A stretch of 32,000 bases of DNA, taken from the NCBI RefSeq assembly GCF_001644705.1, contig NZ_CP015137.1, positions 4,887,834-4,919,833 of the forward strand, read 5' to 3'. This DNA is from Dickeya solani IPO 2222 (lineage in GTDB: Bacteria; Pseudomonadota; Gammaproteobacteria; Enterobacterales; Enterobacteriaceae). Position numbers and translations under genes: made by a program. A model generated the notes under the pieces. The model was not told where the DNA came from. It did no database searches and saw only the letters and a program-made list of their open reading frames with translations. The stretch's first letter is position 1, and every line of letters begins with the position of its first letter. This document shows, piece by piece, positions 7,125 through 30,950 of this stretch.

Positions 7125-7297
7125 AAATCATTAATCACACGGTTTATAACAATTTCCATTCTAATTATGGGACACTTATACCTAGAGGCGCAGCACGATT
7201 CCTGTTACTGTTTGCCTCGCCGGAAAAAACCGGTACATCGATGCATCGTCTGAACGGCGTCTTTCACTTTTAGTCACCCACTGTTTTATCTGACATC

Positions 7298-8353: not shown

Positions 8354-8450
8354 TGTGCTGACCGGTTCCTGTGGTTGCCGCAGGAACCGTTTCCCACTAT
8401 CACCGTGCGTTTCATCCATAAACGCGCTACACATAAAAAGTTCCGCCCAT

Positions 8451-8485
8451 AAAAAAGCCCGGTTTTCTCACCGGGCTTTTTCTTT
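8451..8485. terminator. Bidirectional rho-independent terminator between the DUF481 gene and prc
   Basis: AAAAAA, GCCCGGT, loop tttctc, ACCGGGC, TTTTT. The stem is flanked by an A-run and a T-run. Confidence 0.8.
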
Positions 8486-8506
8486 ATTGCTTGCTATTGC
8501 TGGCCT

Positions 8507-10528: not shown

Positions 10529-10547
10529 GCCCAGGTTGGCCTCCGTA

Positions 10548-11279: not shown

Positions 11280-11363
11280 GAAATTTCCTGATTACAACGG
11301 GTTTGCCAACCAGCGCAGGCATGAACAGGCGTCATTATAATGACGCCATCGGCAATTGCTACG

Positions 11364-11870: not shown

Positions 11871-12185
11871 AGCTTGCAATAGGCAGAATTGTCTTTACGG
11901 ACCGCCTGACGGCTGACGCCCGCAGCACATTAATAAATTTTCGGATCAGGATGCTACAGGATTTCTCTTGTTAGCCCAACCTTCACCGCACAGCGCTGTC
12001 ACAGGACAGCGGTTTATACCTTTTCGCCTGGCATCCTGTCGTTGCCGTGCGGGCTACCGCCTGGTGACGCCATCAATGTCGACTGACCATCAATGTCAAC
12101 GGACAAGGTTAGCAGTGATTTTGTGTCGTTCATCATTCAGTTACACTATGATAATACCTGTCCTGTTAACCTGCCCGCAGGAAAT

Positions 12186-13424: not shown

Positions 13425-13440
13425 TAGTCGTAGGATAACA

Positions 13441-16071: not shown

Positions 16072-16083
16072 GCGTCATACCAG

Positions 16084-16111
16084 CGACTCACCGGCCGATA
16101 CCGGTGAGTCG
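16084..16111 (+). terminator. Hairpin after letB
   Basis: CGACTCACCGG, loop ccgata, CCGGTGAGTCG (11-bp stem). The T-tract is weak. Confidence 0.4.
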
Positions 16112-16180
16112 TCATCCCTTCCGGCGGTCGAGATATGGTAAGATTCGCGTCCTGATTGTAGCTGTAACGGAACCGTTTCT

Positions 16181-17629
16181 GTGGCCAAACCTATTCCCGC
16201 CTCTCTCACCTCTGATTTTCTGACCGCCATGCAAGCCATCATGCCCGCGCACCTGAGCATGGACGCATTCATCGACGCCTGCCAGCGGCCGCTGCGACGC
16301 AGCATCCGCGTTAACACCCTGAAAATCAGCGTGTCCGACTTTCTCGCGCTGGTCGCGCCCTACGGCTGGGAGCTGGAAGCCGTGCCCTGGTGCGATGAAG
16401 GATTCTGGCTGCTGAACGCGGATGAGGAAGCCATGCGGCTGGGCAACGCGCTGGAGCATCTGGCCGGCCTGTTCTACATTCAGGAAGCCAGTTCGATGTT
16501 GCCGGTCAGCGCGCTGTTCATGGGGGATGACGCCCCAGAGCGGGTGCTGGACATGGCGGCCGCCCCCGGTTCCAAAACCACCCAGATCGCCGCCCGGCTC
16601 AACAATCAGGGATTGATTGTCGCCAACGAATATTCCGCCAGCCGGGTCAAGGTACTACACGCCAACCTGCACCGTTGCGGGGTCAGCAATACCGCCCTGA
16701 CGCATTTTGACGGCCGGGTATTCGGCAACGCCCTGCCGGAAACGTTTGACGCCATCCTGCTGGACGCGCCCTGCTCCGGGGAAGGCGTGGTCAGAAAAGA
16801 TCCCGCCGCCATGAGTCACTGGTCGCTGGAGAGCATCGCCGATATCGCGGCGACCCAGCGCGAGCTGATCCTGAGCGCTTTTCATGCACTAAAACCGGGC
16901 GGCGTGCTGATTTATTCCACCTGCACCCTGAATCATCAGGAGAACCAGCATGTTTGCCGCTGGCTGATGCAGCAGTTCCCCGACGCCTGCGAGATCGAAT
17001 CGCTGCAGGATTTGTTCCCGCAAGCACAGCGCGCCATCACCGAAGACGGTTTTTTGCACGTCTTCCCGCAGATTTACGACAGCGAAGGCTTTTTTGTGGC
17101 GCGCCTGCGTAAAACCGCCAGCGTACCGCCGCTGGCGGCGCCGGATTACAAACTCGGCAAGCTGCCGTTTACCCCCCTCAGCCACAAGGATGCGCAGCTG
17201 ATTCGACAAAGCGCGCAGCGGCTGGGCCTGCAGTGGTCGGAACAACAGTTACAGTTATGGCAGCGGGACGATGAAGTCTGGTTATTTCCGGCGGCCTTGC
17301 AGCCGATGCTGGGCAAAATGCGCTTCTCCCGTATGGGCGTCAAACTGGCGGAGCGCTTTGCCAAAGGGTATCGCTGGCAGCATGAAGCCGTTGTGGCGCT
17401 GGGCAATCCTGACAACCCAAACACCTACCCGCTCAGTGCGGAGCAGGTCGTCGACTGGTTTCGCGGCAAAGACATTTATCCGCCTTCGCCCGTCAATCAC
17501 GACGAAGTTCTGCTGACCTGGCAACAGACCACGCTGGGATTGACCAAGCGTGTCGGTCAGCGTCTGAAAAACACCCTGCCTCGCGATCTGGTTCGCGATG
17601 GCGCCAACCTTATTCCCTCTATCGGATAA
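16181..17629 (+). CDS. rsmF: 16S rRNA m5C1407 methyltransferase RsmF (YebU)
   Basis: 482 aa with a GTG start. The start is supported by alignment with E. coli RsmF (…[10 protein letters not shown]...[16 protein letters not shown]). SAM-binding motifs are [10 protein letters not shown] and DAPCSGEG. Confidence 0.9.
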
Positions 17630-17633
17630 TCTT

Positions 17634-17673
17634 TGACCGGGTCGTCGCACAGGGCGTTCCCGGTCCGTTTTTT
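17634..17673 (+). terminator. Rho-independent terminator after rsmF
   Basis: GACCGGG ... CCCGGTC, followed by CGTTTTTTT. Confidence 0.6.
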
Positions 17674-17728
17674 TCATCTACACTCACAATCAAGGCGTGG
17701 CATCAACATTCAACCTGTTGAGGAATCT

Positions 17729-17920
17729 ATGTTCGCACTGGTGATCTTTGTCTGTTACCTGGGAGGTAACTGCGAGAGTCTGGTCGCGGGAACCTATATC
17801 AACGAACCACAGTGTCTGGGTGCCATGGAGGAACAGCAAATCCGTAACGGCGGCTGTTTTCCGGTTGACGATTTTCGCAGCGGGTACTGGAAACCGGCTC
17901 GCGAGTATCGTGACCGCTAA
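17729..17920 (+). CDS. yebW: YebW-like small protein (DUF1482)
   Basis: I chose the internal ATG at 17729 with GAGGAA upstream. The 63 aa MFALVIFVCYLGGNCE...GGCFPVDDF resemble E. coli YebW (MFALVLFVCYLDGGCE...). Confidence 0.75.
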   Translation: MFALVIFVCYLGGNCESLVAGTYINEPQCLGAMEEQQIRNGGCFPVDDFRSGYWKPAREYRDR

Positions 17921-18054
17921 TCGCTGCGGTCATTCTTTCCATTTACAACCGTCACCATCTTTACAACCACAACCTTTATAACGATAACCGTTGCAACCAA
18001 TGGCAGGCAACGCCATTACAGCGACGTTGCCCAAGCAAGGTGACGGCGCTATGG

Positions 18055-20046
18055 CTAGAATCTCATCCATTCCCCTTCAGCGGGAGGATGGCGTGCGGAG
18101 TCAGTCGGTTTGTCGCCCACGCCTTTTCTGAACGTCGGTTTCTTGCCGTGATGACCCGGTTTACCCAGCAACAACGCCGGGCTGACGGACGTTCCCCCCG
18201 ACGCGTGAGCATCGTCGCCTAAATGAAACGCCGATACCGCCTGCGCCAGTATCCGCGACTGTTCCTCAAGCGAATTGGCCGCCGATGACGACTCTTCCAC
18301 CAGCGCCGCGTTTTGCTGGGTCGTGGTGTCCAACTCCGACACCGCCTGAGCAATCTGGGATATTCCCCGGCTTTGCTCATCCGAAGCCGAGGCGATTTCC
18401 CCCATGATGTCAAATACATGGGCTACCGAGCTGACAATATCCTGCATGGTTTTTCCCGCCTCCCCCACCAGCGCTGAACCGGTATCGACCCGTGACACCG
18501 ACTCATGAATCAACCCTTCGATTTCCCGTGCGGCCTGGGCGCTGCGCTGCGCCAGATTGCGCACCTCGCTGGCGACTACCGCGAATCCACGGCCTTGTTC
18601 GCCGGCTCTCGCCGCTTCAACCGCCGCATTCAGCGCCAAGATATTGGTCTGAAAAGCGATACTGTTGATAACCGTCGTAATATCAGAAATGCGTTTGGAA
18701 CTGCTGGAAATGTCGTCCATGGTCTTCACCACGTTATTGACGATTTCACCGCCCTTGACCGCATTCTGCGACGCTTCCGACGCCAGTTGCGACGCATGGT
18801 GGGCGTTTTCGGAGTTCTGTTTCACCGTCGAGGTCAACTGCTCCATGCTGGCGGCCGTTTCCACCACCGCCGCCGATTGCTGTTCGGTACGGGACGAGAG
18901 GTCGGTATTACCCGCCGCGATTTCCGCCGATGCGGACTCGACATGGCTCACCCCTTCGCGGATATCCCGGATCATGGTGCGCAGCTTGTCATTCATGTTG
19001 CCCATCGCGGTGAGCAACTGCCCCAGCTCGTCGCGACGCGTCGTACTGACCACAGATGAAAGATCGCCACTGGCAATCCGCTCCGCCACCGACAGGCTTA
19101 GTTTTAGCGGGACAATCAATTGCACCGAAATACGCCACGCCATGATGATACCCAGCAGGATCACGGACAGACCGGTCGCCACCATGTTGAATTCCGATGA
19201 CTGGGTAGTTTGATTGGAATTAGCCAGTTGTTGATTGAACAGACTGCCGACATCCGTATTCAGTTTTTCCGCCGCCTCGGTCATTGCCTGACTGGCGCGG
19301 GTTTCATCCTTAAAGGCGGCCAGATAGGCCGGCGCAGAACGGCGGTAGCCTGCGAAATAATCCCAGGCGGTATTCAGCCATGCCTGCTGTTCCGCCGACA
19401 ACCGCCCGGCTTTTTCCCTGATGGCGGCTTCGGTAGCATCAATGTTTTTAAGGGTCACGCCCAGCGTATTATCCGAGGGTCCCAGCAGCAGATCATGCGC
19501 TACGTCGCGAATATCCGCCATGTTCTCGCCCAATTGATACAACAGCACCTGAATATCCGACGACACGCCCGCGACCTGCTGCCATTTATTATGGAACGCT
19601 TCCAGCGCGCTGCCGCTTTCATCCTGACCAATAGCCAAACCGGCAGCATCCCGCTTTTTACTGGCGGCGATGAATGCCTCCCGCGTGACCCGATACGATT
19701 TCAGGTCCTCCTCAATTTGGTTCACATCGTTAATCGCCTCCTTATCCCAATGTAGCGTCTTAGCCTGCCTGAGAATGTCGTCCATCTTATTAATCAGCTC
19801 GCCGTTTTTATCGATCAAGCGGTAATCATGCGTGAGCTGAAATTGCGTGCGCAGGAGACGGGCCTGCGCCAATGTGGCGTTGAGTTGATTGCTCGCCAGC
19901 GCCTTATCGTTATTATCCGCCACACTGCGGAATCCAATAACCCCGGAAATCAACACCACCAACGACAATAACAAAACCGAACCAAAACCTAATGACAGTT
20001 TGGTTCCCAGTTTAAGGTTTTCGTATTTTCCACCCAGAATATTCAT
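18055..20046 (-). CDS. Methyl-accepting chemotaxis protein with a large periplasmic sensor and a C-terminal xWxxF pentapeptide
   Basis: Start chosen at M9 ([14 protein letters not shown]). The order is TM1, a periplasmic region of roughly 250-270 aa, TM2, HAMP and the conserved signalling hairpin ([32 protein letters not shown]). A long flexible tail ends in EWMRF. Confidence 0.9.
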
Positions 20047-20550
20047 AGAATCACCATTTATGGCTCTCATAGAGTGAACGTCATTCCATGTATATCAATG
20101 ACATATCATGATAAATTACATATCGCTATTTAATAATTGCAAAGGTAATCAACATCCTTTTTTTATTGCTATCCTGCCGCCAAAAACCTATCGATGCGTT
20201 AAAAAAATCTATTGATGCGTATAAAACTCAATTCAGCAAAAAGTAGAAATAATGAATATCCGGATGCTTGATACCGTCTCGCACGATTAAAAGAACAAAT
20301 AAATCATGTGATTATGAATCAATTGAAACACCATTAAGAATGGTGAGAGAAAAACGATTTACGCTGATTATCAGGATTTTAGTTAACCGTTTTAATCCCT
20401 CATAATCTATATATCATCCTTCCAATAATAGAAAGATATATAATGCAAGGGTATAAGAACCCCCGCTGATCTATCATGACTGGATATTTCGATGAAAATA
20501 AATAGGTCGTTATCAATGACGGGAAGACAGAATAAACATCGGGATAATAT

Positions 20551-20635
20551 GCCGTTGCGAGCAGCCTTAATCGCAACGGCTACGCTTTACCTGCGGATGG
20601 GAACACCCGGCGCAGCCTGCGCGCACCGGGTGTTC
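20551..20635 (-). terminator. Two GC-rich hairpins immediately 3' of the cI-like gene
   Basis: GAACACCCGG...CCGGGTGTTC (20601-20635) and GCCGTTGCG...CGCAACGGC (20551-20580). On the minus strand the second hairpin is followed by a T-rich stretch. Confidence 0.45.
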
Positions 20636-20640
20636 GGATA

Positions 20641-21510
20641 TCAGAAGCTGGGGGTTAGCGTCAGCACCACCACACCGCGCGGCGTGACCTCATCCACCCC
20701 ACACTGGAATTGCGAACCGCCGCCTTCGACCTGCATTTTACGCCCCGGCAACAGCGCCACATCGTAGATATCGCTCTTGCCGTCGATATCCAGCAACCAG
20801 CGACCATTGCTGATACTGGTAATGCCGGTATCCACCAGCCAGGAAGACGAACTCCCTTCAACCAGCAAAGGCGCATGTAATCCCGCAGGGATAAACTGCG
20901 GATCCGCCTTCCACTCCCCCGCATCCTGCAGCTTTCCGGTTTTCAACAGATTACGCGGGATCAGGCATATGCCGCTGTCATCATGACGACTGACGGGCAC
21001 GTCATTCTGCTGCGGCGAACCTTTACCGGTTGCCAGCCACGCCAGCGACACGCCGGTATCCAGCGCGCAGGTGACCACCACATCCCCGGGAAAGAAATCA
21101 CGACGAATCCAGGTGCTGATCGTACCGGGCGCGATGCCCAGCAGATCGCCCAACTCTTTTTGCGTGCTGAAGCCATAGGCATCAAGCATGCGGCGCAGCA
21201 CAGCCTTGCCGCCCGATGACAGAATCTGCTCATAAAGCGCTTTGCCTTTCAGCGGCGATTTATGCGTAAAAACATTCGCATTTGCGAACTCTCCGGTGAC
21301 CAGCCATCCGGCATCTGCTCCGGTATCAAGCGCGCACTTCAAAATAATATTACCCGGCACGTTCCCTCGCTGAACCCAGTTACTGATTGTGTTGGTAGGT
21401 ATCTCAGTGACCTCGCTCAGTTCCTTCTGAGTCTTTACTCCGTAGCTTGACATGATGCGCTCAAGCACGAAGGCCGCAGACACGGCATTACTATTTGTAT
21501 TCAAAAACAC
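20641..21510 (-). CDS. cI: Phage 186-type CI repressor with a tandemly duplicated N-terminal HTH domain
   Basis: 289 aa with a GTG start. Residues ~15-75 and ~104-164 are paralogous. Segment 1 is VLERIMSSYGVKTQKEL...ISNW...CALDTGADAGWLVTG. Segment 2 is VLRRMLDAYGFSTQKEL...ISTW...CALDTGVSLAWLATG. Both resemble the 186 CI N-terminal domain as I recall it, and a ~115 aa C-terminal domain follows. Confidence 0.8.
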   Translation of the reverse strand: MFLNTNSNAVSAAFVLERIMSSYGVKTQKELSEVTEIPTNTISNWVQRGNVPGNIILKCALDTGADAGWLVTGEFANANVFTHKSPLKGKALYEQILSSGGKAVLRRMLDAYGFSTQKELGDLLGIAPGTISTWIRRDFFPGDVVVTCALDTGVSLAWLATGKGSPQQNDVPVSRHDDSGICLIPRNLLKTGKLQDAGEWKADPQFIPAGLHAPLLVEGSSSSWLVDTGITSISNGRWLLDIDGKSDIYDVALLPGRKMQVEGGGSQFQCGVDEVTPRGVVVLTLTPSF

Positions 21511-21520
21511 CTCACGAGTA

Positions 21521-21584
21521 TTTACATATACACGTTACGTGTCTTATAGTGTCTACACAGCACATGTAACACCATAGAACACCC
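21521..21584. promoter_or_regulatory. Lysis/lysogeny switch region: candidate promoters and operator repeats
   Basis: The rightward candidate is TTTACA (21521-26), N18, TATAGT (21545-50). The leftward candidate is GTTACA (complement of 21565-70), N16, TATAAG (complement of 21543-48). The palindrome ACACGT-T-ACGTGT sits at 21530-42. GTGTCT occurs twice (21539, 21549) and AACACC twice (21568, 21578), each pair 10 bp apart. Confidence 0.4.
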
Positions 21585-21607
21585 TGGCCTGGGGGAGATA
21601 TTGCTTT

Positions 21608-22078
21608 ATGTCGGACGAGATTTCAATTCTATCGCGCATTTCTGAGGAAAATCCTACATCAACGAGTCCATCCGTTGAGACAGAAACCGGCTTTTCGGCC
21701 GTCAATCGACGGCCTCATGCTATACCTGACCAAGCGTCGGTTTCTTTCACCGGCTTGCGCAACACGGTCTACGCCGCTGCGCCGGCATCCGAGGTGCGGC
21801 GTGCGGCATGCCACATAAGGAAACAGCATGTCCGGCTTGCCTGTATCACGCCTCAACGCGATTTTGCAAATGCAAAAACGGTCTTCGCCACCGTAACGAC
21901 AACAGCCCGGTTTTCCCACCTCATCGCTGTCTATACGCTACCGGAGCGGCACAGTCGTTCTACCGTTGTGAATGGCGACAATGATTTTAACGCAAAATTC
22001 GGAAAATCGAATTCTGGTTATATTCTGCTCGGGTTTCCGCAGGCTGCCGGCCACGATGGCAAACGAGCGTTATCATGA
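21608..22078 (+). CDS. Hypothetical protein, first ORF of the early rightward operon (occupies the Cox/Apl position but is not recognisably related)
   Basis: 156 aa. GGGGGAG lies upstream of the ATG, and an ATGA overlap couples it to the next ORF. Codon usage is mixed and I recognise no motif. Confidence 0.4.
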   Translation: MSDEISILSRISEENPTSTSPSVETETGFSAVNRRPHAIPDQASVSFTGLRNTVYAAAPASEVRRAACHIRKQHVRLACITPQRDFANAKTVFATVTTTARFSHLIAVYTLPERHSRSTVVNGDNDFNAKFGKSNSGYILLGFPQAAGHDGKRALS

Positions 22079-22605
22079 AGCCCCATTATGCCTTTACCGC
22101 CGACCATCTGCAGACCCTGCCGCCCAATTTGCGGGCGCTGATCGGAAAACACTTCGCGGATTCGCGCTGGGCGCAGACCTGCGTTTTTTACCGGCGGCTC
22201 TCCGAACGCTATCGCCGCACGCTGTGTTTTCATGCTGCACTGCACCATCGCTGGTGCGTCTATCAACTGGAAGAGATGGATGAAATGGCGCGTGAAAGAA
22301 TTGTCAGCGCACTGAATGAACTGCGTAGCGCATTCGGCTTGCCGGAAAAACAGGCGCAGAGCCAGTTGCTGCTCTCGGTTCGGGTCCTCACCCTCAGCGA
22401 GCGCCGCACGCTGTTTTTCCATGCCGGGCTCTCGACCCAGGAATTCGATCAACCCTTGCGACGCATTGACGAGTCGGATTGCCAGTGGGCGAAAGCGCTT
22501 AACCGCGCCCTCGGTGAGCTGCACCACCTGTTTGCCGAGGCGCCCGACATTCTGACCAGTATCAGACCCGAGCACTATTTCAGACCCGAACCCTATTCTC
22601 GTTGA
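22075..22605 (+). CDS. Hypothetical early protein with two internal LSER-R-TL-FHA-L repeats (possible tandem sigma70-r4/LuxR-like HTH)
   Basis: 176 aa. Its position corresponds to P2 B or 186 cII/fil/dhr. The repeats are RRLSERYRRTLCFHAAL and LTLSERRTLFFHAGLSTQEF. Confidence 0.6.
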   Translation: MKPHYAFTADHLQTLPPNLRALIGKHFADSRWAQTCVFYRRLSERYRRTLCFHAALHHRWCVYQLEEMDEMARERIVSALNELRSAFGLPEKQAQSQLLLSVRVLTLSERRTLFFHAGLSTQEFDQPLRRIDESDCQWAKALNRALGELHHLFAEAPDILTSIRPEHYFRPEPYSR

Positions 22606-22721
22606 CCGTTTCGCTGACGACGGATCTCGCCAGAAAAAACGACATCGTTAACTCAACCGCCAGCACACAGGCCGCCGCTCAGGCTGGTCCACATTGTTGC
22701 TGCTTAACATCAGGAAATTGT

Positions 22722-22937
22722 ATGAAAAAAACACAGCCGAACCACAAGGTGCCGTCTCTCGCCAGGCAGCACATCCCAAATGACGTCTGGCGTACAGACT
22801 TCGCCCATCGCTATAGCGAGCATCTGGACCAGTTGGCGCAACACGCCCGACAGGAACAGTTATCCGCTCAGGAACTGGTGGCGTTGCTGCAACAGGAAGC
22901 CGAAAACATCCGACATCAGATTTGGGAGGCGCACTAA
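22722..22937 (+). CDS. Small P2-family early protein, DUF2732-like
   Basis: 71 aa from the ATG at 22722, with AGGAAA upstream. The C-terminal helix (LSAQELVALLQQEAENIRHQIWEAH) resembles DUF2732 proteins of P2-like prophages as I recall them. A TAATG overlap links it to the next gene. Confidence 0.55.
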   Translation: MKKTQPNHKVPSLARQHIPNDVWRTDFAHRYSEHLDQLAQHARQEQLSAQELVALLQQEAENIRHQIWEAH

Positions 22938-23161
22938 TGGCAGACAGTATGGACATTTCCCAGGAGCAGCAAGCCATGCTGCTGGATGCGCAAATCGCCC
23001 ATGCCCGCAAAGCCCCTACGGCTCACGCCGCCCATGTCTGTGAGGACTGTGATGCGCCGATTCCCGAGGCCCGCCGTCAGGCGATCCCTGGCGTGACGTG
23101 CTGCGTGGCATGTCAGGAAATTCGCGAACAGAAGCAACGTCACTACCGTCCGCCGTCCTGA
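22937..23161 (+). CDS. TraR/DksA-family C4 zinc-finger protein (P2 orf82-like)
   Basis: 74 aa from the ATG at 22937, with GGGAGG upstream. It carries CEDC-N17-CVAC. Confidence 0.8.
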   Translation: MADSMDISQEQQAMLLDAQIAHARKAPTAHAAHVCEDCDAPIPEARRQAIPGVTCCVACQEIREQKQRHYRPPS

Positions 23162-23257
23162 GCGAGCTTTCACTGACTAACAAGCCAGGGTCAATCTGCG
23201 GCTATTCCCGCCGGGAATCTGGCAAACACTCATCGGGTAGGTAAACGCTGGTTAGTT

Positions 23258-25384
23258 ATGACGTCCGACAACGCTGAAAAAAACGCCGACAACCGTGGCA
23301 ACCGCTGGGTATACCCGTGGAATGCGCCCCGCCCCGCCATTCTGCCCGAATCCAGCGTATTGTCTTCGGATACCTTGCAGCAGGGTCAGGCGGTACTGTA
23401 TCGGCTGGCGTTGCTGCCGCGTTTTCTGGCCGGTCATTTCCGCCGCCGCTTCGACTATCTGAAGCAGCAGCAGGGGCTGGGCGCCGCGTTCAGCTATCTG
23501 TTATCGGTGGTTCAGCGGCGGCTCTGGCCGCGAATCGACGCCGTCAACGCCCGCTACCGAATGAATACGGCCTTATCTTCCCACTTCATCAGCGAAGCGG
23601 AACAGTATCACCAGTTGCCGGATATGCCGGACAAGGTTCTGCGCGCGTTTGCGAGCCGCATCGCCGCCCACATGAACGATGCCTACCATGCCCACTGCGA
23701 ACGCTATCTGCAGGAATGCCCCGGCGATCATCAGGCGGAGCTATTCAGTGATGAAACACAAGCGCGTATCTACGGTCAGCTAGCCACACTGGCACAAGCC
23801 GTGAACGTGACGCCCGCCCACTGGCATCGCCATCAAAACGGGACACTCACGCTGGAACAGGCATGTGCCGGCATTATGCGGCTGGTCACCCCCCGATGGT
23901 GGGAGCGTCAGTTGAAAATTCAGCGAACCCGCTGGCGTGAGGCATTGTGGATTGCCAGCGGCGAGGTAAGCCGGGCCGCATCTCCCTTTCTCAGCCGCCA
24001 GGCGCTGCAGGATATCCGCTACCGCCGTCTGGCGACGCTGGATTTTCTGAAAAGTCGCGAGCTGGAAAATACCCGTAACGGCGAGCGGGTCGATTTGATC
24101 GATAAAGTCATGGGCAGTATCGCTAATCCGGATATTCGCCGTATGGAACTGATGACCATGTTGGCGGGTATTGAGCGTTACGCTACCGCACACCAGCACA
24201 TCGGTATGCTGGTGACGTTCACTGCCCCCGGCCACTATCATCCCACCCGTACCCGCGGCCATGACCGGGTATTGGTCAACACCGGATGGATGCCGGATTG
24301 CCCTTCGCCCAAAATGACCCAGCATTATCTGGTCAAGTTATGGGGAAAAATCCGCACCGCGCTCAAAGACCGTAAACTGCAAATCTACGGGTTACGAGTC
24401 GTTGAACCCCATCACGACGGCACGCCGCACTGGCACATGATGCTGTATTGCGAACGCGCACAGCGTCAGGCGATCGTCGACATCCTGCGCCGCTATGCCC
24501 AGCCAAATGAAAGCGACCGTGCCGCGGCGCATAACCGCCGGTTTGACTGCAAGCACATCAATAAAGGCGGCGCGGCGGCATACGTCGCCAAATACATCGC
24601 CAAAAATATCGATGGCTATGCGCTGGATGGCGAAGCAGACCACGAAACCGGAAAACCGCTGAAAGACATGGCCGCCTCCGCCTCGGCCTGGGCCTCGATC
24701 TGGCGCATTCCTCAATTCCATTTCATCGGGTTGCCCACGGTTGGCGCGTACCGCGAATGTCGACGCATTCGCAGCCGCTCATTACAGGATGCGCTGGGCG
24801 AACAGGCCGAAACGGTGAGATTCGCCGCGGATCGCGGTGACTTCGCGGCGTATATCGAGGCGCAGGGCGGCGCGAATGTCGCCCGGCAACACCAGTCGGT
24901 TCGTGTCGCCAGAGCCGCCAGCGAACGGCTGAACGCCTACGATGAAACGATTGTGCGTACCGTCGGTATTTTTTCCGCCCAGCGCGGCCGCGAGCGAGTA
25001 TTCACCACCCGACCGGATGAATGGCAAATCGTGGCCAAAAACCATGCCGGCGGCGATGTCGCCGATCGCCATCGTTCTGCTCTGCCTTGGAGTTCTGTCA
25101 ATAACTGTGGGGGCGTGCTTTCACCCGACGCACTCCCTTATCCATTTCGCGATATTCCCCGCGTTCCTTCAGCGCGGCTAACCTATTTTCAGCGAGATCG
25201 ACTGGCGTCGTTGCGCCCCCGCCTCAGTCAGCAAGGTATTGATACCTCACGCTGGGAACGGGAGGCACTGGTGCGCGGCGCCAAAGTGAAGATTGACGGC
25301 CAACTGATTGATGAATTTAAGAATAAAGCTATATCCGCCGTTGATGAAAAGCGCATCATGAGCACACAGGTGCTGCACTTATGA
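23258..25384 (+). CDS. A: P2 gpA-type replication initiation endonuclease (rolling circle, HUH)
   Basis: 708 aa. It has LRVVEPHHDGTPHWHMML (the HUH region) and AAYVAKYIAKNIDGYALDG (catalytic Tyr pair). It appears collinear with P2 gpA along its length, as I recall that sequence. Confidence 0.92.
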   Translation: MTSDNAEKNADNRGNRWVYPWNAPRPAILPESSVLSSDTLQQGQAVLYRLALLPRFLAGHFRRRFDYLKQQQGLGAAFSYLLSVVQRRLWPRIDAVNARYRMNTALSSHFISEAEQYHQLPDMPDKVLRAFASRIAAHMNDAYHAHCERYLQECPGDHQAELFSDETQARIYGQLATLAQAVNVTPAHWHRHQNGTLTLEQACAGIMRLVTPRWWERQLKIQRTRWREALWIASGEVSRAASPFLSRQALQDIRYRRLATLDFLKSRELENTRNGERVDLIDKVMGSIANPDIRRMELMTMLAGIERYATAHQHIGMLVTFTAPGHYHPTRTRGHDRVLVNTGWMPDCPSPKMTQHYLVKLWGKIRTALKDRKLQIYGLRVVEPHHDGTPHWHMMLYCERAQRQAIVDILRRYAQPNESDRAAAHNRRFDCKHINKGGAAAYVAKYIAKNIDGYALDGEADHETGKPLKDMAASASAWASIWRIPQFHFIGLPTVGAYRECRRIRSRSLQDALGEQAETVRFAADRGDFAAYIEAQGGANVARQHQSVRVARAASERLNAYDETIVRTVGIFSAQRGRERVFTTRPDEWQIVAKNHAGGDVADRHRSALPWSSVNNCGGVLSPDALPYPFRDIPRVPSARLTYFQRDRLASLRPRLSQQGIDTSRWEREALVRGAKVKIDGQLIDEFKNKAISAVDEKRIMSTQVLHL

Positions 25385-25385
25385 G

Positions 25386-25428
25386 TTGACGAATACTACT
25401 GAATAAAGTACTGTATATAAATACAGTC
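25386..25428 (+). promoter_or_regulatory. SOS-regulated promoter: TTGACG-N17-TACTGT overlapped by a LexA box
   Basis: TACTGTATATAAATACAGTC at 25409-25428 is an exact CTGT-N8-ACAG and matches the 20-bp E. coli consensus at 18 of 20 positions. The -35 hexamer is at 25386-91 and the -10 hexamer lies inside the box. Confidence 0.8.
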
Positions 25429-25447
25429 TCACAATGGAAGAGGTACC

Positions 25448-25669
25448 GTGGAACAGACTGAAAACCGAGAGCTGACCTTATCAAGGATTCGATTAATTGC
25501 CGATATGTCATTGATATCACAATGTGATCCTGAAGAAATGAAAATCGCCATGTCGTTGATCGCCGACTTATCTCACGGCGAACTCCCGGATAGTGATTAT
25601 CAACAGTTTCTGAAGAACAGCAGTGATGGACAGCAGCTTAAAGCATGGTTCGAACAACAAATGTTGTAA
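25448..25669 (+). CDS. Small acidic protein under the LexA box, a candidate Tum-like antirepressor
   Basis: 73 aa with a GTG start and GGAAGAGG upstream. It starts 20 bp downstream of the LexA box and occupies the same post-A position as 186 tum. I recognise no sequence similarity. Confidence 0.55.
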   Translation: MEQTENRELTLSRIRLIADMSLISQCDPEEMKIAMSLIADLSHGELPDSDYQQFLKNSSDGQQLKAWFEQQML

Positions 25670-25987
25670 GGGATTTCGATGGATAATAATGATCGACGTG
25701 AAATTCCCTGGCCGATCGCCAGAGGCACGTGCAAATTAATGGATTTTCTCTGTGGCTAACACGCCAGACTAATACGCAGCAAAACTTTTTCGTATCCAGA
25801 CCGCTCAATAAAAGGTCTGACCGGCCAAAGCCGGTATATACATTTTGGCATGAATTTTAATTCTGACTCAGTGCAAACCTGTTCGTTGGTCATGTTTTTC
25901 TCTTTAACACAGTGGTACGGAATTAGGGTACGCCCATGTAAAAACATCTGTGAGTAACATGCCCCGGTCTTCCCGGTACCTTTAATA

Positions 25988-26110
25988 CACAATATCCCCT
26001 GCCAGCAAGGATTGGCAGGGGTCACAATAATCTAGGATCACAATAAATAGGTGCCACAATAAGTCGGCGCCATGATAAGTCGTCGGCACAATAAGCAAGG
26101 GGCACCATAA
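25988..26110 (+). repeat. Left iteron array: seven copies of CACAATAA-like octamers
   Basis: Copies start at 25988 (CACAATAT), 26023, 26039, 26055, 26071 (CATGATAA), 26087 and 26103 (CACCATAA). The last six have an exact 16-bp period. A 9-bp-stem hairpin (25996-26021) separates copies 1 and 2. Confidence 0.9.
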
Positions 26111-26139
26111 ATAAACACCCTGACATCATTTTCCACCGG

Positions 26140-26238
26140 TTGTTGTGCTTCCTGTTGTTGTATTTCCTGTTGTTGTATTTCCAGTTGTTGTATTTCCAGT
26201 TGTTGTACTTCCTATATGTTGTGCCTCCTATTGTTGTG
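26140..26238 (+). repeat. Right iteron array: seven copies of TTGTTGTR, in inverted orientation relative to the left array
   Basis: Copies start at 26140, 26155, 26170, 26185, 26200, 26216 and 26231, a 15-bp period with one 16-bp step. The four central units are near-identical: TTGTTGTATTTCC(T/A)G. Confidence 0.9.
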
Positions 26239-26252
26239 CCATCCGTCCGACA
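26235..26252 (+). promoter_or_regulatory. TGT-N12-ACA dyad (P2 late-promoter activator-site pattern) upstream of gpX
   Basis: TGT is at 26235-37 and ACA at 26250-52. GATAAA at 26290-95 is a possible -10, which puts the dyad near -55 to -58. Confidence 0.35.
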
Positions 26253-26317
26253 CCTTCCCCGTATTGCGACCGCCATCGTTCCTCTGGAGGATAAAGGACC
26301 CGAGATAACCCGTTTTA

Positions 26318-26359
26318 CTCGATCTTTTTTATCTGAATCTCTCGATCTTTTTATCTGAA
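26318..26359 (+). repeat. Tandem ~20-bp direct repeat just upstream of gpX
   Basis: CTCGATCTTTTTTATCTGAA (26318-37) and CTCGATCTTTTTATCTGAA (26341-59). The second ends 14 bp before the X start codon. Confidence 0.85.
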
Positions 26360-26373
26360 CCTAAAGGTATCAT

Positions 26374-26577
26374 ATGAAAGTTTACGCCCATCAGGACGAC
26401 ACCCTGGACGCGCTCTGTTACCGCTATTACGGCCGCACGCAAGGCGTGGTGGAAACGGTTATGCTGTCCAATCAGGGGCTTGCGGATCTTGGCCCCATTC
26501 TGCCACACGGCACCGCCGTCACTTTGCCCGACATGAATGTTTCCGGCTCACAGGAAAGCGTCAATCTCTGGGAATAA
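26374..26577 (+). CDS. X: P2 gpX-like tail protein (LysM-like)
   Basis: 67 aa. MKVYAHQDDTLDALCYRYYGRTQGVVETVMLSNQGLADLG..LPHGTAVTLPD...VNLWE is nearly collinear with P2 gpX as I recall it. Confidence 0.88.
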   Translation: MKVYAHQDDTLDALCYRYYGRTQGVVETVMLSNQGLADLGPILPHGTAVTLPDMNVSGSQESVNLWE

Positions 26578-26652
26578 CTCCGGACTATCAGGCTCCATGC
26601 TCGCCTTCGGCCGATAATACATGGAGATCGCCGCCACACCAGGAACCTTATC

Positions 26653-27114
26653 ATGCAAAAACCACAAAGCCTCAAACTTGCACTGACCACCGCACTACCC
26701 GCGCTGGGCAATGCGTTACAGTTTCGGATCCAGGAGGGGGAAATCGCCGCGTTGCAGGAGCCGTCCCTGTCGTTTGAATACCGCTATCAGCTGCTGCTGA
26801 CGCTGAATAATTTCGCTGACAATCCCGACACCCTTTTTGTCACCCTGCTGCTATGGGTGCGCCAGAACCAGCCGGACTTGTTAACGCGTGAAAGCATCCG
26901 CAACAAAGGCATCAGCTTTACGATCGACAACAATGCGGACAACACCAGCACGCTGTCCGTTCGGCTCAACCTGACAGAGCGCAACCGAGTCAACGAACAG
27001 AATCAAACCCTGCAGGTACAGTATGAACCGGAGCCAACGCCGCCCGAACCGGTTAGCCGCCCTACGGCGCTGTATATCGCCGGCGAACTGGTCAGCCAGT
27101 GGAAAGGGAACTGA
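26653..27114 (+). CDS. R: P2 gpR-like tail completion protein
   Basis: 153 aa. Motifs shared with my recollection of P2 gpR are KP.SL..ALT, W(V/L)R.NQPD, LTER, PPEPV.RP and LYI.GELVS.W. Confidence 0.75.
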   Translation: MQKPQSLKLALTTALPALGNALQFRIQEGEIAALQEPSLSFEYRYQLLLTLNNFADNPDTLFVTLLLWVRQNQPDLLTRESIRNKGISFTIDNNADNTSTLSVRLNLTERNRVNEQNQTLQVQYEPEPTPPEPVSRPTALYIAGELVSQWKGN

Positions 27115-27142
27115 TCCCTTCAACTATCATTTCCTCCATGAT

Positions 27143-27168
27143 GGCCGTTGCGAATACGGCCTGTTTTT
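27143..27168 (+). terminator. Rho-independent terminator after gpR
   Basis: GGCCGT, loop tgcgaat, ACGGCC, then TGTTTTT. Confidence 0.65.
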
Positions 27169-27448
27169 CCTGAGAAACGATAAGCAATGAGTATTTTATG
27201 ATTTAAATATTCATCCCATTTATTTCTAGTTCGTAATTTTCATAATAAACTTTATCTACGCGGTCTGTCTGATGCACCTTCCTTCATTTTCTTCATCGCA
27301 AATTATTTCAGAAATCGCTTTCTACTGTTATCGCCTGGGATTAATCAGTAATACCCTATGACCTTCCATGTTTAATCAGCAAAAAAAACTGCTGATGTTA
27401 TTACCTCACCCCCTCTATTTTGGATTGAATAACTGACGGGAAACACAA

Positions 27449-28213
27449 TTGGATAAAAGCCGAAGTTTGCCACGTAATATGCGAAAGGAATTATTCGATT
27501 TTAAACATTTCGGCAACAATGAGGGATTCCTTTATTACCCGAAAATCATGGAAGATATCCGTCCTTTTCTGCCTGAAAACACCATCGCCCATTACAGCGG
27601 TAATCGTGAAAAATCCAGAAAATTGCTTACTCTGTTCGGTGGTCATTTGGGTGACCCGTATTGCAGCCAGACTGCCGCTCCCAGCGCGTCACCGCAGCTC
27701 ACCAACATGTTCTCTTCCTACGGACAGCTGACGGCCAGAGCGGATTCGCCAACGCCGGTGTTTACCCAGCCCGATTTTCTGCTGCTGTATTGCCTGTGTG
27801 AAACGTCCGTCTTCAAGGTGCTGGTTGGCATTGCCAGTCTTCGCCATGTCATTCAACATCTGGACCGGCAAACCCGCACCGAATTATGCCTGCCGCAGTA
27901 TGCGCTGCGCCCCGGCGTCATCAGCCAGGAACACACACCGTTCAGTCTCCTCAGCGCTGACCACGACCCCTTTCTGACCTGTACGCCTGACCTGGCGTAT
28001 CCCCTGACCTCGCCCGCCAGATATGCGTTGCTGAAGCTCGACCCGCTGCTGAAAAACAGCATGCGATGGCTCAATCTGAAACGGGGCGATCTGCTCATTA
28101 TCGACAACCGCCGCAGTACCCACAACTGCGTGCCATTCACCCCGTTTTTCCGACAGGATTCACCTTACCTGATGCACATGTTCGTCAATAAACCGGACCC
28201 GACACGATACTGA
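27449..28213 (+). CDS. Clavaminate-synthase/TauD-like (Fe(II)/2OG dioxygenase fold) protein, possibly lacking the proximal metal ligands. It is inserted where gpS is expected.
   Basis: 254 aa with a TTG start and GGGAAA upstream. The C-terminal GDLLIIDNRRSTH...PF.P.F resembles the GDxxxxDNxRxxHGR signature of VioC/AsnO/TauD-type enzymes. PDFLLLYCLC resembles their PDxxxLxCL motif. I could not find a clear HxD/E upstream. About 330 bp of AT-rich DNA precedes it. Confidence 0.55.
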   Translation: MDKSRSLPRNMRKELFDFKHFGNNEGFLYYPKIMEDIRPFLPENTIAHYSGNREKSRKLLTLFGGHLGDPYCSQTAAPSASPQLTNMFSSYGQLTARADSPTPVFTQPDFLLLYCLCETSVFKVLVGIASLRHVIQHLDRQTRTELCLPQYALRPGVISQEHTPFSLLSADHDPFLTCTPDLAYPLTSPARYALLKLDPLLKNSMRWLNLKRGDLLIIDNRRSTHNCVPFTPFFRQDSPYLMHMFVNKPDPTRY

Positions 28214-28362
28214 TTCCTTACCCAGGCCAGGCAACGCCACTGCGCTTTATCTTGATGCAAAGGTCGTAATGAATAAGGTCGGGGCGCAAAGATCGGTGGG
28301 ACCATCCGCCACACAACCACGGCGAATTGTCTCATCCTGCGGGAAGACGCATGCTTCCCACC

Positions 28363-29004
28363 ATGAATACATACGAATATCTCTCCGAAATCCAGCGCGC
28401 ACTGCGTAACCTGATTCGTATCGGCGTCATCACCGAGGTCGATACCCAACAGGCACGCTGCCGCGTGCAGACCGGTGGCATGGTCACCGGGTGGCTCCAC
28501 TGGCTGTCCCGTCGTGCGGGGAGTTCCCGCGAATGGTGGGCACCGTCGGTGGGTGAACAGGTGTTACTGCTTGCAATAGGAGGCGAACTCAATACGGCAT
28601 TTGTCTTACCGGGTATTTACAGCGAACACCATCCGGCCCCATCGGCCTCTGCGGATGCCTGCCACATCCGCTTCCCTGATGGTGCGGTGATGGAATACGA
28701 ACCGGCCAACGGCGCGCTGACCGTCACCGGTATCAAGAGCGCGGCAGTCGTCGCATCGGAATCGGTGACCGTCACCACGAAAAACGTCACCATCAACGCC
28801 AGCCAGCGCATCACGCTGGACACCCCGGAAGTCGTCTGTACGCACAAATTAATCACCCAGACCATCGACGTTCAGCAAGGCGGCAACATCACCGGTAGCG
28901 TCACCCACTCGGGGGGAAGTTTCTCCTCCAATGGCGTGGTGGTGCATACCCATCAGCACAGCGGCGTACAAAGTGGCGGCGGCACAACAGGAGGACCTCT
29001 ATGA
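28363..29004 (+). CDS. V: P2 gpV baseplate spike
   Basis: I chose the ATG at 28363 (MNTYEYLSEIQRALRNLIRIG), which aligns with the P2 gpV N-terminus. Shared segments include RCRVQTGGM, WWAPSVGEQVL, HIRFPDGAV.EYEP and LDTPEVVCT. Confidence 0.92.
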   Translation: MNTYEYLSEIQRALRNLIRIGVITEVDTQQARCRVQTGGMVTGWLHWLSRRAGSSREWWAPSVGEQVLLLAIGGELNTAFVLPGIYSEHHPAPSASADACHIRFPDGAVMEYEPANGALTVTGIKSAAVVASESVTVTTKNVTINASQRITLDTPEVVCTHKLITQTIDVQQGGNITGSVTHSGGSFSSNGVVVHTHQHSGVQSGGGTTGGPL

Positions 29005-29351
29005 CCAGCACGTCATACACCGGCATGAATCGCAGCACCGGCGGCAGCCTCAGCGATCTGGAACATTTGCGTCAAAGCGTGCGCGATATTCTGACCACCC
29101 CGCAAGGCAGCCGTGTCATGCGGCGCAATTACGGTTCGCTGCTTTCCACCCTGATCGACCAGCCGCAAACGCCCGCGCTGAAACTACAGGTGCAGGCGGC
29201 CTGCTATGTCGCGTTGCTGAAGTGGGAACCGCGGCTGACGCTGACGTCCATCTCAATGGAAAGCCACTACGACGGCCAGTTGATTGTGGATATTTCCGGC
29301 ACCCTGGCCGGCAACGGCACATCCCTTTCGTTAACCATTCCCGTGAGCTGA
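29001..29351 (+). CDS. W: P2 gpW baseplate wedge protein (GPW/gp25 family)
   Basis: 116 aa with an ATGA overlap with V. The motif is L.QSVRDILTTP.GSRVMRR.YGS.L. Confidence 0.9.
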   Translation: MTSTSYTGMNRSTGGSLSDLEHLRQSVRDILTTPQGSRVMRRNYGSLLSTLIDQPQTPALKLQVQAACYVALLKWEPRLTLTSISMESHYDGQLIVDISGTLAGNGTSLSLTIPVS

Positions 29352-29355
29352 GATC

Positions 29356-30264
29356 ATGCCTCTTATCGACTTAAGTCAGTTACCCGCCCCTAGCGTGGTC
29401 GAAACGCTGGATTATGAAACCCTGTACGCCACACGCAAAGAAACCCTGCTGTCGCTCTACAGCGCCGATGAGCGTGAAGCCATTGCGCGCGCCCTGACGC
29501 TGGAGTCGGAACCGCTGGTGAAACTGCTGCAGGAAAACGCCTACCGCGAGCTGCTGCTGCGCCAGCGCATCAATGAAGCCGCTCAGGCCGGGATGCTGGC
29601 GTTTGCCCAGGGCAACGATCTGGACCAGTTGGGCGCCAACGTCAACGTCTCCCGACTGGTGATCACCCCGGCTGACAATACCACCGTTCCCCCGACCGCC
29701 GCCGTGATGGAATCCGATACCGATTTCCGTCTGCGCATTCAGCAGGCTTATGAAGGTCTGAGCGTGGCAGGCTCCATCGGCGCCTACCAGTTCCACGGGC
29801 GCAGCGCCAGCGGCCAGGTGGCGGATATTTCGGTCATCAGCCCTGGTCCCGCTCAGGTGCTGGTGTCGGTCCTGTCGCGGGAAAATGACGGCACGGCCAG
29901 CGATACGCTGCTTGCCACCGTCAATGCGGCGCTGAACGCCGAAGACGTCAGGCCGGTGGCTGACCGGGTTACCGTCAAATCGGCGGTGATTGTTCCTTAC
30001 GATATCAATGCCGTGCTTTACCTGTATCCCGGCCCGGAAGTCGAGCCGATCCGCGCCGCCGCCGAGAAGAAACTGCAGAGTTACGTCAGCACCCAGCACC
30101 GGCTGGGTCGCGATATCCGCCGTTCCGCCATCTACGCCGCACTGCATGTGGAAGGGGTTCAGCGGGTAGAGCTGGCTCGCCCGGCGGAGGATATCGTGCT
30201 GGACGATACCCAGGCGTCGCACTGCACCGGTTATACCCTGACGCTGGGGGGAACGGATGAATAA
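29356..30264 (+). CDS. J: P2 gpJ baseplate assembly protein
   Basis: 302 aa Baseplate_J-like protein (IDLSQLPAP.VVE.LDYE). It overlaps gene I by 8 nt. Confidence 0.9.
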   Translation: MPLIDLSQLPAPSVVETLDYETLYATRKETLLSLYSADEREAIARALTLESEPLVKLLQENAYRELLLRQRINEAAQAGMLAFAQGNDLDQLGANVNVSRLVITPADNTTVPPTAAVMESDTDFRLRIQQAYEGLSVAGSIGAYQFHGRSASGQVADISVISPGPAQVLVSVLSRENDGTASDTLLATVNAALNAEDVRPVADRVTVKSAVIVPYDINAVLYLYPGPEVEPIRAAAEKKLQSYVSTQHRLGRDIRRSAIYAALHVEGVQRVELARPAEDIVLDDTQASHCTGYTLTLGGTDE

Positions 30265-30868
30265 AAGCCCCCTGCTGCCCCCCGGTTCATCGCCGCTGGA
30301 GCATGCCGTTGCCGTCACCGGCGCCAAACTGGAAGCCGTGCCGATTCCTCTGCGCCAACTCTGGAATCCGGAGACCTGTCCGGTCGAGCTGCTGCCTTAT
30401 CTGGCCTGGACGCTATCGGTTGACCGCTGGGATGAAAGCTGGACGGAAACCGTCAAACGCAAAGTCATCAGGGACGCATTCTTTATCCACCGCCACAAGG
30501 GCACTATCGGCGCGCTGCGCCGGGTCGTTGAGCCGCTGGGATACCTGATTCGCATCAAGGAGTGGTGGCAAACCGGCGACGCCCCCGGCACCTTCCGGCT
30601 GGATATCGGTATTCAGGAATCAGGGATCACCGAAGAGTCCTTTCAGGAGCTGGAGCGCCTGATTGCCGACGCCAAACCGGTTAGCCGCCAGATGCTGGGG
30701 TTAAACATCAATCTGGACAGTTCGGGTACGCTGTTAATGGGTGCCGGCTCCTATAGCGGCGACGAACTCACCATCTACCCCTACTTCCCTGAAACCATCA
30801 GCGTTTTTGGCGAAGAGATCAATGGGGCGGCCATTCACCTGATTGATGATATCTACGTCGGTGGCTGA
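30257..30868 (+). CDS. I: P2 gpI tail/baseplate protein
   Basis: 203 aa. Segments LLP.GSSPLE, LWNP.TCP..LLP.LAW..SVDRWDE.W and HKGTIGA.RRVVEPLGYLI match my recollection of P2 gpI. Confidence 0.9.
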   Translation: MNKSPLLPPGSSPLEHAVAVTGAKLEAVPIPLRQLWNPETCPVELLPYLAWTLSVDRWDESWTETVKRKVIRDAFFIHRHKGTIGALRRVVEPLGYLIRIKEWWQTGDAPGTFRLDIGIQESGITEESFQELERLIADAKPVSRQMLGLNINLDSSGTLLMGAGSYSGDELTIYPYFPETISVFGEEINGAAIHLIDDIYVGG

Positions 30869-30932: not shown

Positions 30933-30950
30933 TGTCTCCCCACGCTAACA
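30933..30950 (+). promoter_or_regulatory. GTTGT-N12-ACAAC dyad (P2 late-promoter pattern) upstream of H
   Basis: TGT is at 30933-35 and ACA at 30948-50, extendable to a 5-bp dyad. CATACT at 30985-90 as the -10 puts the dyad centre near -55. Confidence 0.4.

Follow-up and report, generated by a model that had tools for sequence, protein, structure and literature searches.

A gene for a probable clavaminate-synthase-like pseudoenzyme, likely accessory cargo, at the R-V junction of the P2D1-type tailocin cluster of Dickeya solani

The 32,000-nucleotide stretch of Dickeya solani IPO 2222 analysed here (contig NZ_CP015137.1, positions 4,887,834 to 4,919,833 of the forward strand; hereafter the window, with its first letter as position 1) is the D. 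solani copy of the dickeyocin P2D1-type tailocin cluster, and not a P2 prophage. Between the tail genes R and V it carries ORF254, an open-reading frame (ORF) of 254 codons and the subject of this report. Its product belongs to a known enzyme family as a divergent and, by prediction, inactive member, and the gene occupies a recognised cargo site in a tailocin cluster that has been described before. The genes are arranged in the order chemotaxis-protein gene, 186-type CI, B, DksA/TraR-like gene, A, 73-aa ORF, X, R, ORF254, V, W, J, I and tail fibre, and the order is identical in the clusters of D. dadantii, D. fangzhongdai and D. undicola. P2-type tail genes without head genes, at a conserved Dickeya site beside a methyl-accepting chemotaxis protein gene, mark the cluster as an R-type (P2-like) tailocin of the P2D1 type; the 671-aa ORF at 18055-20070 (minus strand) was assigned by position, being placed like the chemotaxis-protein gene of the syntenic loci L001 and L006. 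From gpA the window passes directly to X, with no Q-to-L, Y, K, lysA, lysB or S homologues in the ORF list, by Pfam or by tblastn. When P2 proteins were used as tblastn queries, X, R, V and W were matched in the window, and no homologues of S, Y, K, lysA, lysB or orf30 were found there. P2D1 of D. dadantii 3937 has been described as a headless P2-tail-like cluster between a chemotaxis-protein gene and guaD, and active particles were reported for this headless element without gpS (PMC10719855, PMC11974492). According to the P2-to-3937 gene table of its authors, S and orf30 are absent, Y, K and lysC lie at a distant locus and an Ogr homologue lies at the cluster end; their BLASTP search of the whole D. 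dadantii 3937 genome gave nothing homologous to S (PMC10719855). The initial annotation of the window had described AT-rich DNA and a 254-aa ORF after gpR and a terminator, and all of these features are found where it had placed them (Table 1).

The same annotation had read the protein as a clavaminate-synthase-like (TauD/TfdA) fold, with which the profile matches, a structural model and the Foldseek search that it had called for all agree. As a single sequence, ORF254 matches Pfam TauD (PF02668) weakly and in its C-terminal region (E = 0.021; 15.1 bits against a cut-off of 27). A profile of five Dickeya sequences, compared with the sequences in PDB, recovered clavaminate synthase (CAS) 1 (1drt; 1.5e-8), CAS3 (3.4e-6) and AsnO (1.7e-4), and the NCBIfam model ClavSyn_CS1 aligned with residues 4-248 (5e-15), scoring 55.8 bits against an equivalog cut-off of 450. 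By these comparisons ORF254 is a homologue of the TauD/CAS family that stays under the curated membership thresholds. In an exhaustive hidden Markov model scan of 1.84 billion representatives, its family, a singleton at the 50% identity level, was confined to Dickeya, and the nearest relatives are intact TauD-family proteins of ~330 aa (best E 1.7e-18; ~30% identity). The nearest intact relative lies on a metagenome contig beside a HalD-like gene, which says nothing on the donor. ORF254 also matches phrog_18172 (PHROG), a tiny family of unknown function. No relatives were detected by tblastn in 50,697 phage genomes, and searches of the literature on tailocins together with TauD, and on the locus tags, found nothing relevant.

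AlphaFold2 (AF2) gave an unusable model with the five Dickeya sequences alone (predicted local distance difference test, pLDDT, of 30), and the prediction was repeated with 42 sequences (pLDDT 80; predicted template modelling score, pTM, 0.81). Searched with Foldseek, the second model returned 255 PDB matches at E ≤ 1e-3, led by CAS-like hydroxylases. The match to 1drt has E = 3.4e-14 and a query-normalised template modelling score (TMq) of 0.69, and the top matches, namely CAS, AsnO, KDO1, OrfP, VioC and NapI, have TMq of about 0.7. The predicted model contains the CAS-like double-stranded beta-helix. Judged by its profiles and predicted fold, ORF254 is a descendant of a clavaminate-synthase-like (TauD/TfdA superfamily) Fe(II)/2-oxoglutarate (2OG) amino-acid hydroxylase.

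The catalytic residues of this family were compared in a 42-sequence alignment of 38 relatives and four Dickeya proteins, one of which lacks the first 33 residues in its public annotation. Two of the three iron ligands of the relatives lie on an L-x-x-H-T-E-x-x-F-HP strand, where the proximal His is present in 37/38 and Glu holds the carboxylate position in 34/38, with Asp in several others. The distal His is present in 36/38, and the Arg and Trp of the subsequent DRW motif in all 38. The Dickeya proteins have a gap of 9-12 residues at the HxE strand and no His; the remnant reads LTARADSP, LTSSASSS or LKSAAGSP by species, so that the position nearest the carboxylate is D, S or G. Of the facial triad (HxD/E...H), the distal His225 alone is present in the Dickeya orthologues. 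HGR is replaced by HNC, HTC or HIC, and DRW by SPY. Both contacts to the C5 carboxylate of 2OG are lost, the Arg found in 38/38 relatives being replaced by Pro239 and the Thr by Val126. From CAS, AsnO and VioC we take this Arg to be the 2OG C5-carboxylate binder, and the Arg replaced by His243 is presumably the binder of the substrate carboxylate.

This loss extends well beyond the ligands. Only 16 of the 48 columns that are at least 80% conserved in the 38 relatives are identical in all four Dickeya sequences, a count made slightly too low by the truncated annotation. The lost columns are almost all polar (R117C, D119T, T126V, D179T, R227C, D235R, G236Q, D238S, R239P, W240Y and R243H), and the kept ones are mostly hydrophobic, Gly or Pro, with D214, D219, R222 and the distal His also kept. 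The replacement residues do not themselves vary among the four Dickeya species. The Dickeya protein also lacks ~48 residues that the relatives have at their N-terminus, and nothing convincing as a remnant of these was seen in the AT-rich leader. From these residues, canonical Fe(II)/2OG chemistry by ORF254 is very unlikely, and the pattern is as expected of a pseudoenzyme. When the sequence was first read, the proximal ligands had been described as not evident and the 2OG Arg as possibly missing, and a pseudoenzyme had been offered as one possibility; the alignment confirms and extends that loss, and the term fits.

Several lines of evidence show ORF254 to be a genuine protein-coding gene under selection. 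One source lists a D. solani protein of 100% identity under the name 'Clavaminate synthase', and the orthologue in D. dadantii 3937 is WP_033111902.1, whose locus tag, judging by tag order, would be DDA3937_RS12045. In D. solani, D. dadantii, D. fangzhongdai and D. undicola alike, the frame opens four codons before the same TTG, with GGGA 7 nt upstream of it. The ratio of nonsynonymous to synonymous divergence (dN/dS) was calculated by the Nei-Gojobori method for the six pairs among D. solani, a D. dadantii-type genome, D. fangzhongdai and D. undicola (dS 0.25-0.5). It is 0.19-0.27 for ORF254 (Fisher p 1e-7 to 7e-17) and below 1 in every sub-region tested, and is mostly 0.04-0.13, with a few closest pairs up to 0.2, for the neighbours gpJ, gpI and gpV. 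Because the frame opens so close to this TTG and codons 1-33 have a dN/dS of ~0.1 (0.08-0.27 in the six pairs), the TTG start is favoured over the later ATGs of public annotations; one '196-aa' annotation proved at the DNA level to have an intact frame, its short length being a start-call artefact. The GC content at third codon positions is 0.69 in codons 61-254, similar to that of the neighbours, and the first 60 codons and the leader are AT-rich.

The distribution of ORF254 was surveyed from protein clusters and contig look-ups, as a gpR scan of the genome collection gave two loci only. Four species carry the gene (D. solani, D. dadantii, D. fangzhongdai and D. undicola), D. dianthicola has a decayed copy, and D. 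oryzae, D. zeae, D. chrysanthemi and D. lacustris lack it. The R-V spacers of these last four are 190-410 bp long (~330 bp in D. zeae Ech586, ~410 bp in D. chrysanthemi and ~190 bp in D. lacustris) and hold neither gpS nor an ORF. P2 gpS has no match in the whole window at E ≤ 1 (tblastn), and gpS is missing from every Dickeya P2D1-type cluster examined. Since it is absent from the ORF-less species too, the loss of gpS is older than and independent of the insertion, and ORF254 is no replacement for gpS, contrary to what the position of the gene had first suggested.

D. oryzae shares with D. solani the terminator, the first ~160 bp of the AT-rich spacer and the last ~100 bp before V. The GC content is 0.335-0.375 over about 27100-27500, against 0.55-0.60 in the flanks, and the gap between gpR and ORF254 carries ~290 bp of AT-rich DNA. 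All of this had been taken for an AT-rich insertion; an insertion does exist, as a gap in the D. oryzae sequence opposite 27326-28262, but the first ~160 bp of AT-rich DNA are ancestral spacer. No terminal repeats or mobile-element signatures were found flanking the insertion. The pair AGTTCGTAAT / AGGTCGTAAT was considered as a target-site duplication and rejected, because it also occurs in the ORF-less D. oryzae. If D. lacustris branches early in Dickeya, as we assume, parsimony favours an order in which gpS would have been lost in the ancestral tailocin, the ORF gained once in the common ancestor of D. solani, D. dadantii, D. dianthicola, D. fangzhongdai and D. undicola, and the gene then decayed in D. 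dianthicola.

In the annotation of P2, the terminator of the O operon after S is followed by the non-essential orf30 (on the opposite strand), the PV activator site and V. ORF254 sits between the gpR terminator and the block proximal to V, which is the same inter-operon slot as that of P2 orf30, a known cargo locus. Foreign genes in P2-like phages are commonly located at three loci, the orf30, TO and Z regions (PMC3091744), and phage R18C has a different 741-bp ORF16 at its S-V junction (PMC6823313). The view that the gene lies outside the classical P2 cargo hotspots is thus not correct, the orf30 region being one of three recognised loci (PMC3091744, PMC6823313). A relationship between ORF254 and P2 orf30 itself was rejected (BLASTP E = 4.3; different PHROG). 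Presence and absence vary among syntenic relatives, as in a cargo gene (moron), and together with the slot this pattern bears out the proposal that ORF254 behaves as horizontally acquired cargo.

Table 1. Features of the R-V junction and its surroundings, in positions of the window.
Feature	Position	Strand	Evidence
gpX, tail protein X, first gene of the X-R late unit	26374..26577	+	Pfam Phage_tail_X 1.2e-27; P2 gpX 66% identity (tblastn)
gpR, tail completion/terminator protein	26653..27114	+	Pfam P2_Phage_GpR 5.5e-34; P2 gpR 44% identity
Intrinsic-terminator-like hairpin GGCCGT-TGCGAAT-ACGGCC plus TGTTTTTCC	27143..27170	+	Terminator scan, RNA fold; positional equivalent of the P2 O-operon terminator
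AT-rich ancestral R-V spacer, common to ORF-less species	27171..27325	.	GC 0.34-0.38; aligns with D. oryzae and D. zeae spacers up to about GCAAATTATTTCAG
Conserved non-coding block, candidate promoter/operator, with inverted repeat TACTG-N18-CAGTA	27300..27365	+	85-150 bp upstream of ORF254; interspecies identity 85-95%
Cargo insertion of ~0.94 kb: leader, ORF and ~50 bp downstream	27326..28262	+	Gap in D. oryzae alignment; boundaries ~10 bp either way
ORF254, clavaminate-synthase-like, predicted to be catalytically dead	27449..28213	+	254 aa, TTG start; profiles, fold, dN/dS
Codons 94-104 (LTARADSPTPV), variable low-confidence loop replacing the HxD/E strand	27728..27760	+	Alignment; pLDDT <50
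His225 codon, distal His, sole retained metal ligand; 'HGR' reads HNC	28121..28123	+	Alignment
Pro239 codon, in place of the invariant 'DRW' Arg 14 residues after the distal His	28163..28165	+	Alignment
V-proximal conserved block, likely V-operon control region	28266..28362	+	Kept in all 9 Dickeya species, ORF or not
gpV baseplate spike	28363..29004	+	Pfam Phage_base_V, Phage_spike, Apex; 66% identity to P2 gpV from residue 1
gpW, gpJ and gpI baseplate genes, remainder of the V operon in the window	29001..30868	+	Pfam matches

Upstream of ORF254, the stem of the terminator hairpin is invariant and its loop variable across the aligned Dickeya species. The 66-bp block at 27300-27365 is conserved at the interspecies level given in Table 1, compared with identities of 65-78% and 53-67% in the neighbouring non-coding DNA, which suggests a candidate control region dedicated to ORF254. 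Neither a LexA box nor a TGT-N11/12-ACA site was found upstream of ORF254, and no Rfam families were found in 25300-28500.

Downstream of ORF254, the ~100-bp block before V is conserved in all nine Dickeya species, whether the ORF is present or not. It includes an imperfect dyad TGG-N11-ACA at 28297-28313 in D. solani, and a perfect TGT-N12-ACA in D. lacustris; the dyad is centred 56-58 bp before the V ATG, and the annotated P2 PV activator site 57 bp before it. An Ogr homologue is present in the D. dadantii cluster. The P2 PV region and the Dickeya block are alignable for short motifs only, so that a V promoter can be assigned here by position and conservation only. With this block in place V putatively retains its own late promoter downstream of ORF254, and the former statement that no late promoter lies between the two genes is doubtful. 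Two other Ogr-type TGT-N12-ACA dyads occur in the window, at 26235-26252 (~130 bp upstream of gpX) and at 30933-30950 (just downstream of gpI and upstream of the tail-fibre gene). The half-sites of the dyad upstream of X are conserved in six of the eight species sampled, with a variable interior; the D. dadantii copy has one mismatch, and none was seen in D. lacustris. A conserved hairpin GGGAAG-ACGCATG-CTTCCC (28340-28362) immediately precedes the gpV start; it holds the only Shine-Dalgarno-like sequence there as well as the ATG at 28351, and may affect the translation of V. This in-frame ATG is an alternative start that would give a 217-aa form of gpV, annotated in several genomes.

Pseudoenzymes of the 2OG-oxygenase/cupin superfamily keep the fold under persisting purifying selection, with the catalytic residues gone. 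We consider it probable (roughly 0.6) that ORF254 is likewise a selected, non-catalytic pseudoenzyme, carried as accessory cargo of the tailocin cluster. Such a protein would be unable to bind Fe(II) or 2OG canonically and would act without oxygenase chemistry, most likely as a binding or scaffold protein, with a former active site remodelled around the lineage-invariant Cys117, Cys227, Pro239, Tyr240 and His243. It would probably be expressed from its own conserved upstream region, the gpR terminator insulating it from the X-R transcript and V keeping its own promoter downstream, and it would be neither a part of the tailocin machine nor a substitute for gpS.

The identity of the protein and its evolutionary history are the well-supported parts of this reading, and the mode of action is an inference. 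Several points weigh against it. The non-catalytic role is deduced from the missing residues only, the AF2 alignment consists mostly of intact enzymes, and the former active-site loop (residues 75-104) is of low confidence in the model. The preference for a gain over repeated clean losses depends on parsimony and on the assumed early branching of D. lacustris. Scans gave no convincing sigma-70 promoter upstream of ORF254 and no terminator downstream of it, so that read-through into V is possible, and expression data for ORF254 were not found. All three D. dianthicola loci returned (L017-L019, at about 4460-5100) carry a decayed copy, disrupted by a 13-bp insertion and by the deletion of ~100 and ~480 bp, and in one D. 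fangzhongdai genome the gene is frameshifted into fragments of 180 and 60 aa. Since the gene has decayed in the former and is frameshifted in the latter, its role must be dispensable; ORF254 is selected in four species, yet dispensable.

These disruptions lead to the question of whether ORF254 is a decaying relic without present function, that is, a fragment of an acquired oxygenase gene under loss. The N-terminal truncation, the loss of all the catalytic residues, the pseudogene of D. dianthicola, the frameshifts in one D. fangzhongdai genome and in one D. solani record (P0004, P0121; a double frameshift that may be an assembly error), and the absence from half of the Dickeya species with reported tailocin production unaffected, would all suit a relic. 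The selection data do not: dN/dS is 0.19-0.27 (p as low as 7e-17) and stays under 1 throughout the gene, even in the first 33 codons; four species at dS 0.25-0.5 agree in frame, start and length; the substituted active-site residues are invariant; and the upstream non-coding block is conserved. A relic is therefore unlikely. Disrupted frames in sister strains, which together with a lack of transcription in any condition had been named beforehand as a sign against the cargo proposal, do occur in D. dianthicola and in one D. fangzhongdai genome, but the frame is intact and selected in four species. Purifying selection is compatible with catalysis, and ORF254 might still be an enzyme, whether an oxygenase whose metal site is non-canonical or a protein with another activity in the old pocket; the distal His225 and the GDLLIIDNRR strand are kept, and the new invariant C117, C227, H243 and H66 could make another metal site. 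This is quite unlikely, as the protein has neither the proximal His nor any of the HxD/E strand, the residue nearest the carboxylate varies between species, both 2OG contacts are gone (Pro239 and Val126) and the presumed substrate Arg has become His243; no 2OG oxygenase is known to us to function with a single residue of the facial triad and without the 2OG-binding Arg.

The remaining alternatives concern what the protein does for its host or its element. P2-like cargo loci often carry exclusion genes, and a role in anti-phage defence or superinfection exclusion, like that of P2 old, tin and fun(Z), would agree with the location in one of three variable cargo loci, the AT-rich leader and the patchy distribution. 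It is nevertheless improbable: PADLOC-DB v2 gave no family match at E ≤ 0.01 (5027 models), tblastn detected no relative in the phage genomes, the family is confined to one tailocin lineage, and ORF254 is a single gene without nuclease, ATPase or membrane features. The defence or counter-defence function once proposed for it hence finds no support. A function in tailocin biology, as gpS substitute, assembly factor or V-operon regulator, could be read from the occurrence of ORF254 only in the tailocin cluster, on the same strand directly upstream of V with no detectable terminator between, and from D. dianthicola, the only species with a decayed copy, which includes a strain whose cluster reportedly yields no tailocins (PMC11974492). 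One D. dianthicola genome (L019) also lacks an intact V, which would give another reason for non-production. Strains of D. zeae, D. oryzae and D. chrysanthemi are reported to make killing tailocins (PMC11974492), and the examined representatives of these species have no ORF254. The protein is not among the six P2D1 particle proteins identified by mass spectrometry of excised gel bands (weak evidence), and it has no similarity to gpS. Because of these three facts, ORF254 is unlikely to be part of the tailocin machine, and a tailocin function of any of these kinds is very improbable. Unlikely, though worth stating, is that the dead oxygenase has been put to a new use, in which the lineage-invariant C115, C117, C227, H225 and H243 could form a new metal or ligand site, either of a sensor or regulator tied to tailocin production or of a single-gene exclusion factor. 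No characterised bacterial CAS-like pseudoenzyme is known to us, and ORF254, if so reused, would be the first with a defined non-catalytic role.

Elsewhere in the window, the headless cluster retains apparently intact CI, gpB and a 708-aa gpA replication initiator (20641-25384), as do the clusters of all the Dickeya species sampled; a few assemblies (L002, L012) have a split gpA. The conserved 73-aa ORF just downstream of gpA (25448-25669; phrog_1993, of unknown function) is preceded, at a distance of 22 bp, by a perfect LexA/SOS box, CTGTATATAAATACAG (25411-25426), and the 186-type CI repressor gene is at 20641-21510 on the minus strand. The layout of LexA box, 73-aa ORF and CI resembles the SOS-controlled Tum antirepressor of phage 186, and by this analogy could explain the induction of the tailocin by mitomycin C. 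Between the 73-aa ORF and gpX, the AT-rich segment at 26022-26300 contains short tandem repeats that read as repeated YNNWK / LLYF peptides in two frames, and is probably non-coding repeat DNA left at the site of the head-gene deletion.

The tail-fibre region has an invertible segment between alternative Collar-domain fibre ends, beside a resolvase/invertase gene (L001/L002 and L006/L007, about 13700-20700). The segment carries phytase-like, major facilitator superfamily transporter and Smr genes, and its orientation varies between genomes; a difference in orientation has been mentioned before (PMC11974492). In CP110362.1, the cluster occurs at both ends of the record (4945088-4965849 and 1-19903; L001, L002), with the invertible segment in opposite orientations and with split genes in the second copy. 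This duplicate looks like an unresolved circularisation overlap.

The tailocins of Dickeya are being studied for their part in competition between soft-rot pathogens and for a possible use in biocontrol. The R-V gap is left undescribed in the published P2D1 maps consulted, and its gene is now assigned to a fold family, as a selected, dispensable and, by prediction, non-catalytic member. The loss of gpS before the insertion bears on which of the P2 tail-completion proteins a headless tail needs. The biological payoff of ORF254 itself is limited unless a phenotype is found; it offers what appears to be a clear case, found in nature, of a domesticated phage remnant that retains a pseudoenzyme as cargo.

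Compared with known systems, the window is the orthologue of the P2D1 cluster of D. dadantii 3937, with CI, B, A, the 73-aa ORF, X, R, the ORF, V, W, J, I and H in the same order, and the 1.2-kb R-V gap of P2D1 holds a 253-aa orthologue of ORF254, although the publication left the gene in this gap undescribed (PMC10719855). With P2 orf30 and R18C ORF16, ORF254 has in common the slot, a non-essential character, an AT-rich context and variability between relatives. This situation is different from that of P2 in that the orf30 protein is unrelated and encoded on the opposite strand, and in that the Dickeya host element is a headless tailocin without gpS. The CAS-like hydroxylases (CAS1/CAS3, AsnO, VioC, OrfP, KDO1, NapI and GntD) are homologous to ORF254 over residues 4-248 and have the same predicted fold, and the core motifs FGNxEG, PDFLLLYCL and GDLLIIDNRR and the distal His are common to both, whereas ORF254 is without the HxD/E strand, the 2OG-binding Arg or Thr, the Arg of 'HGR' and ~48 N-terminal residues. 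In short, with its predicted fold retained, its catalytic residues lost and its sequence under purifying selection, ORF254 resembles the pseudoenzymes of the 2OG-oxygenase/cupin superfamily as a general concept.

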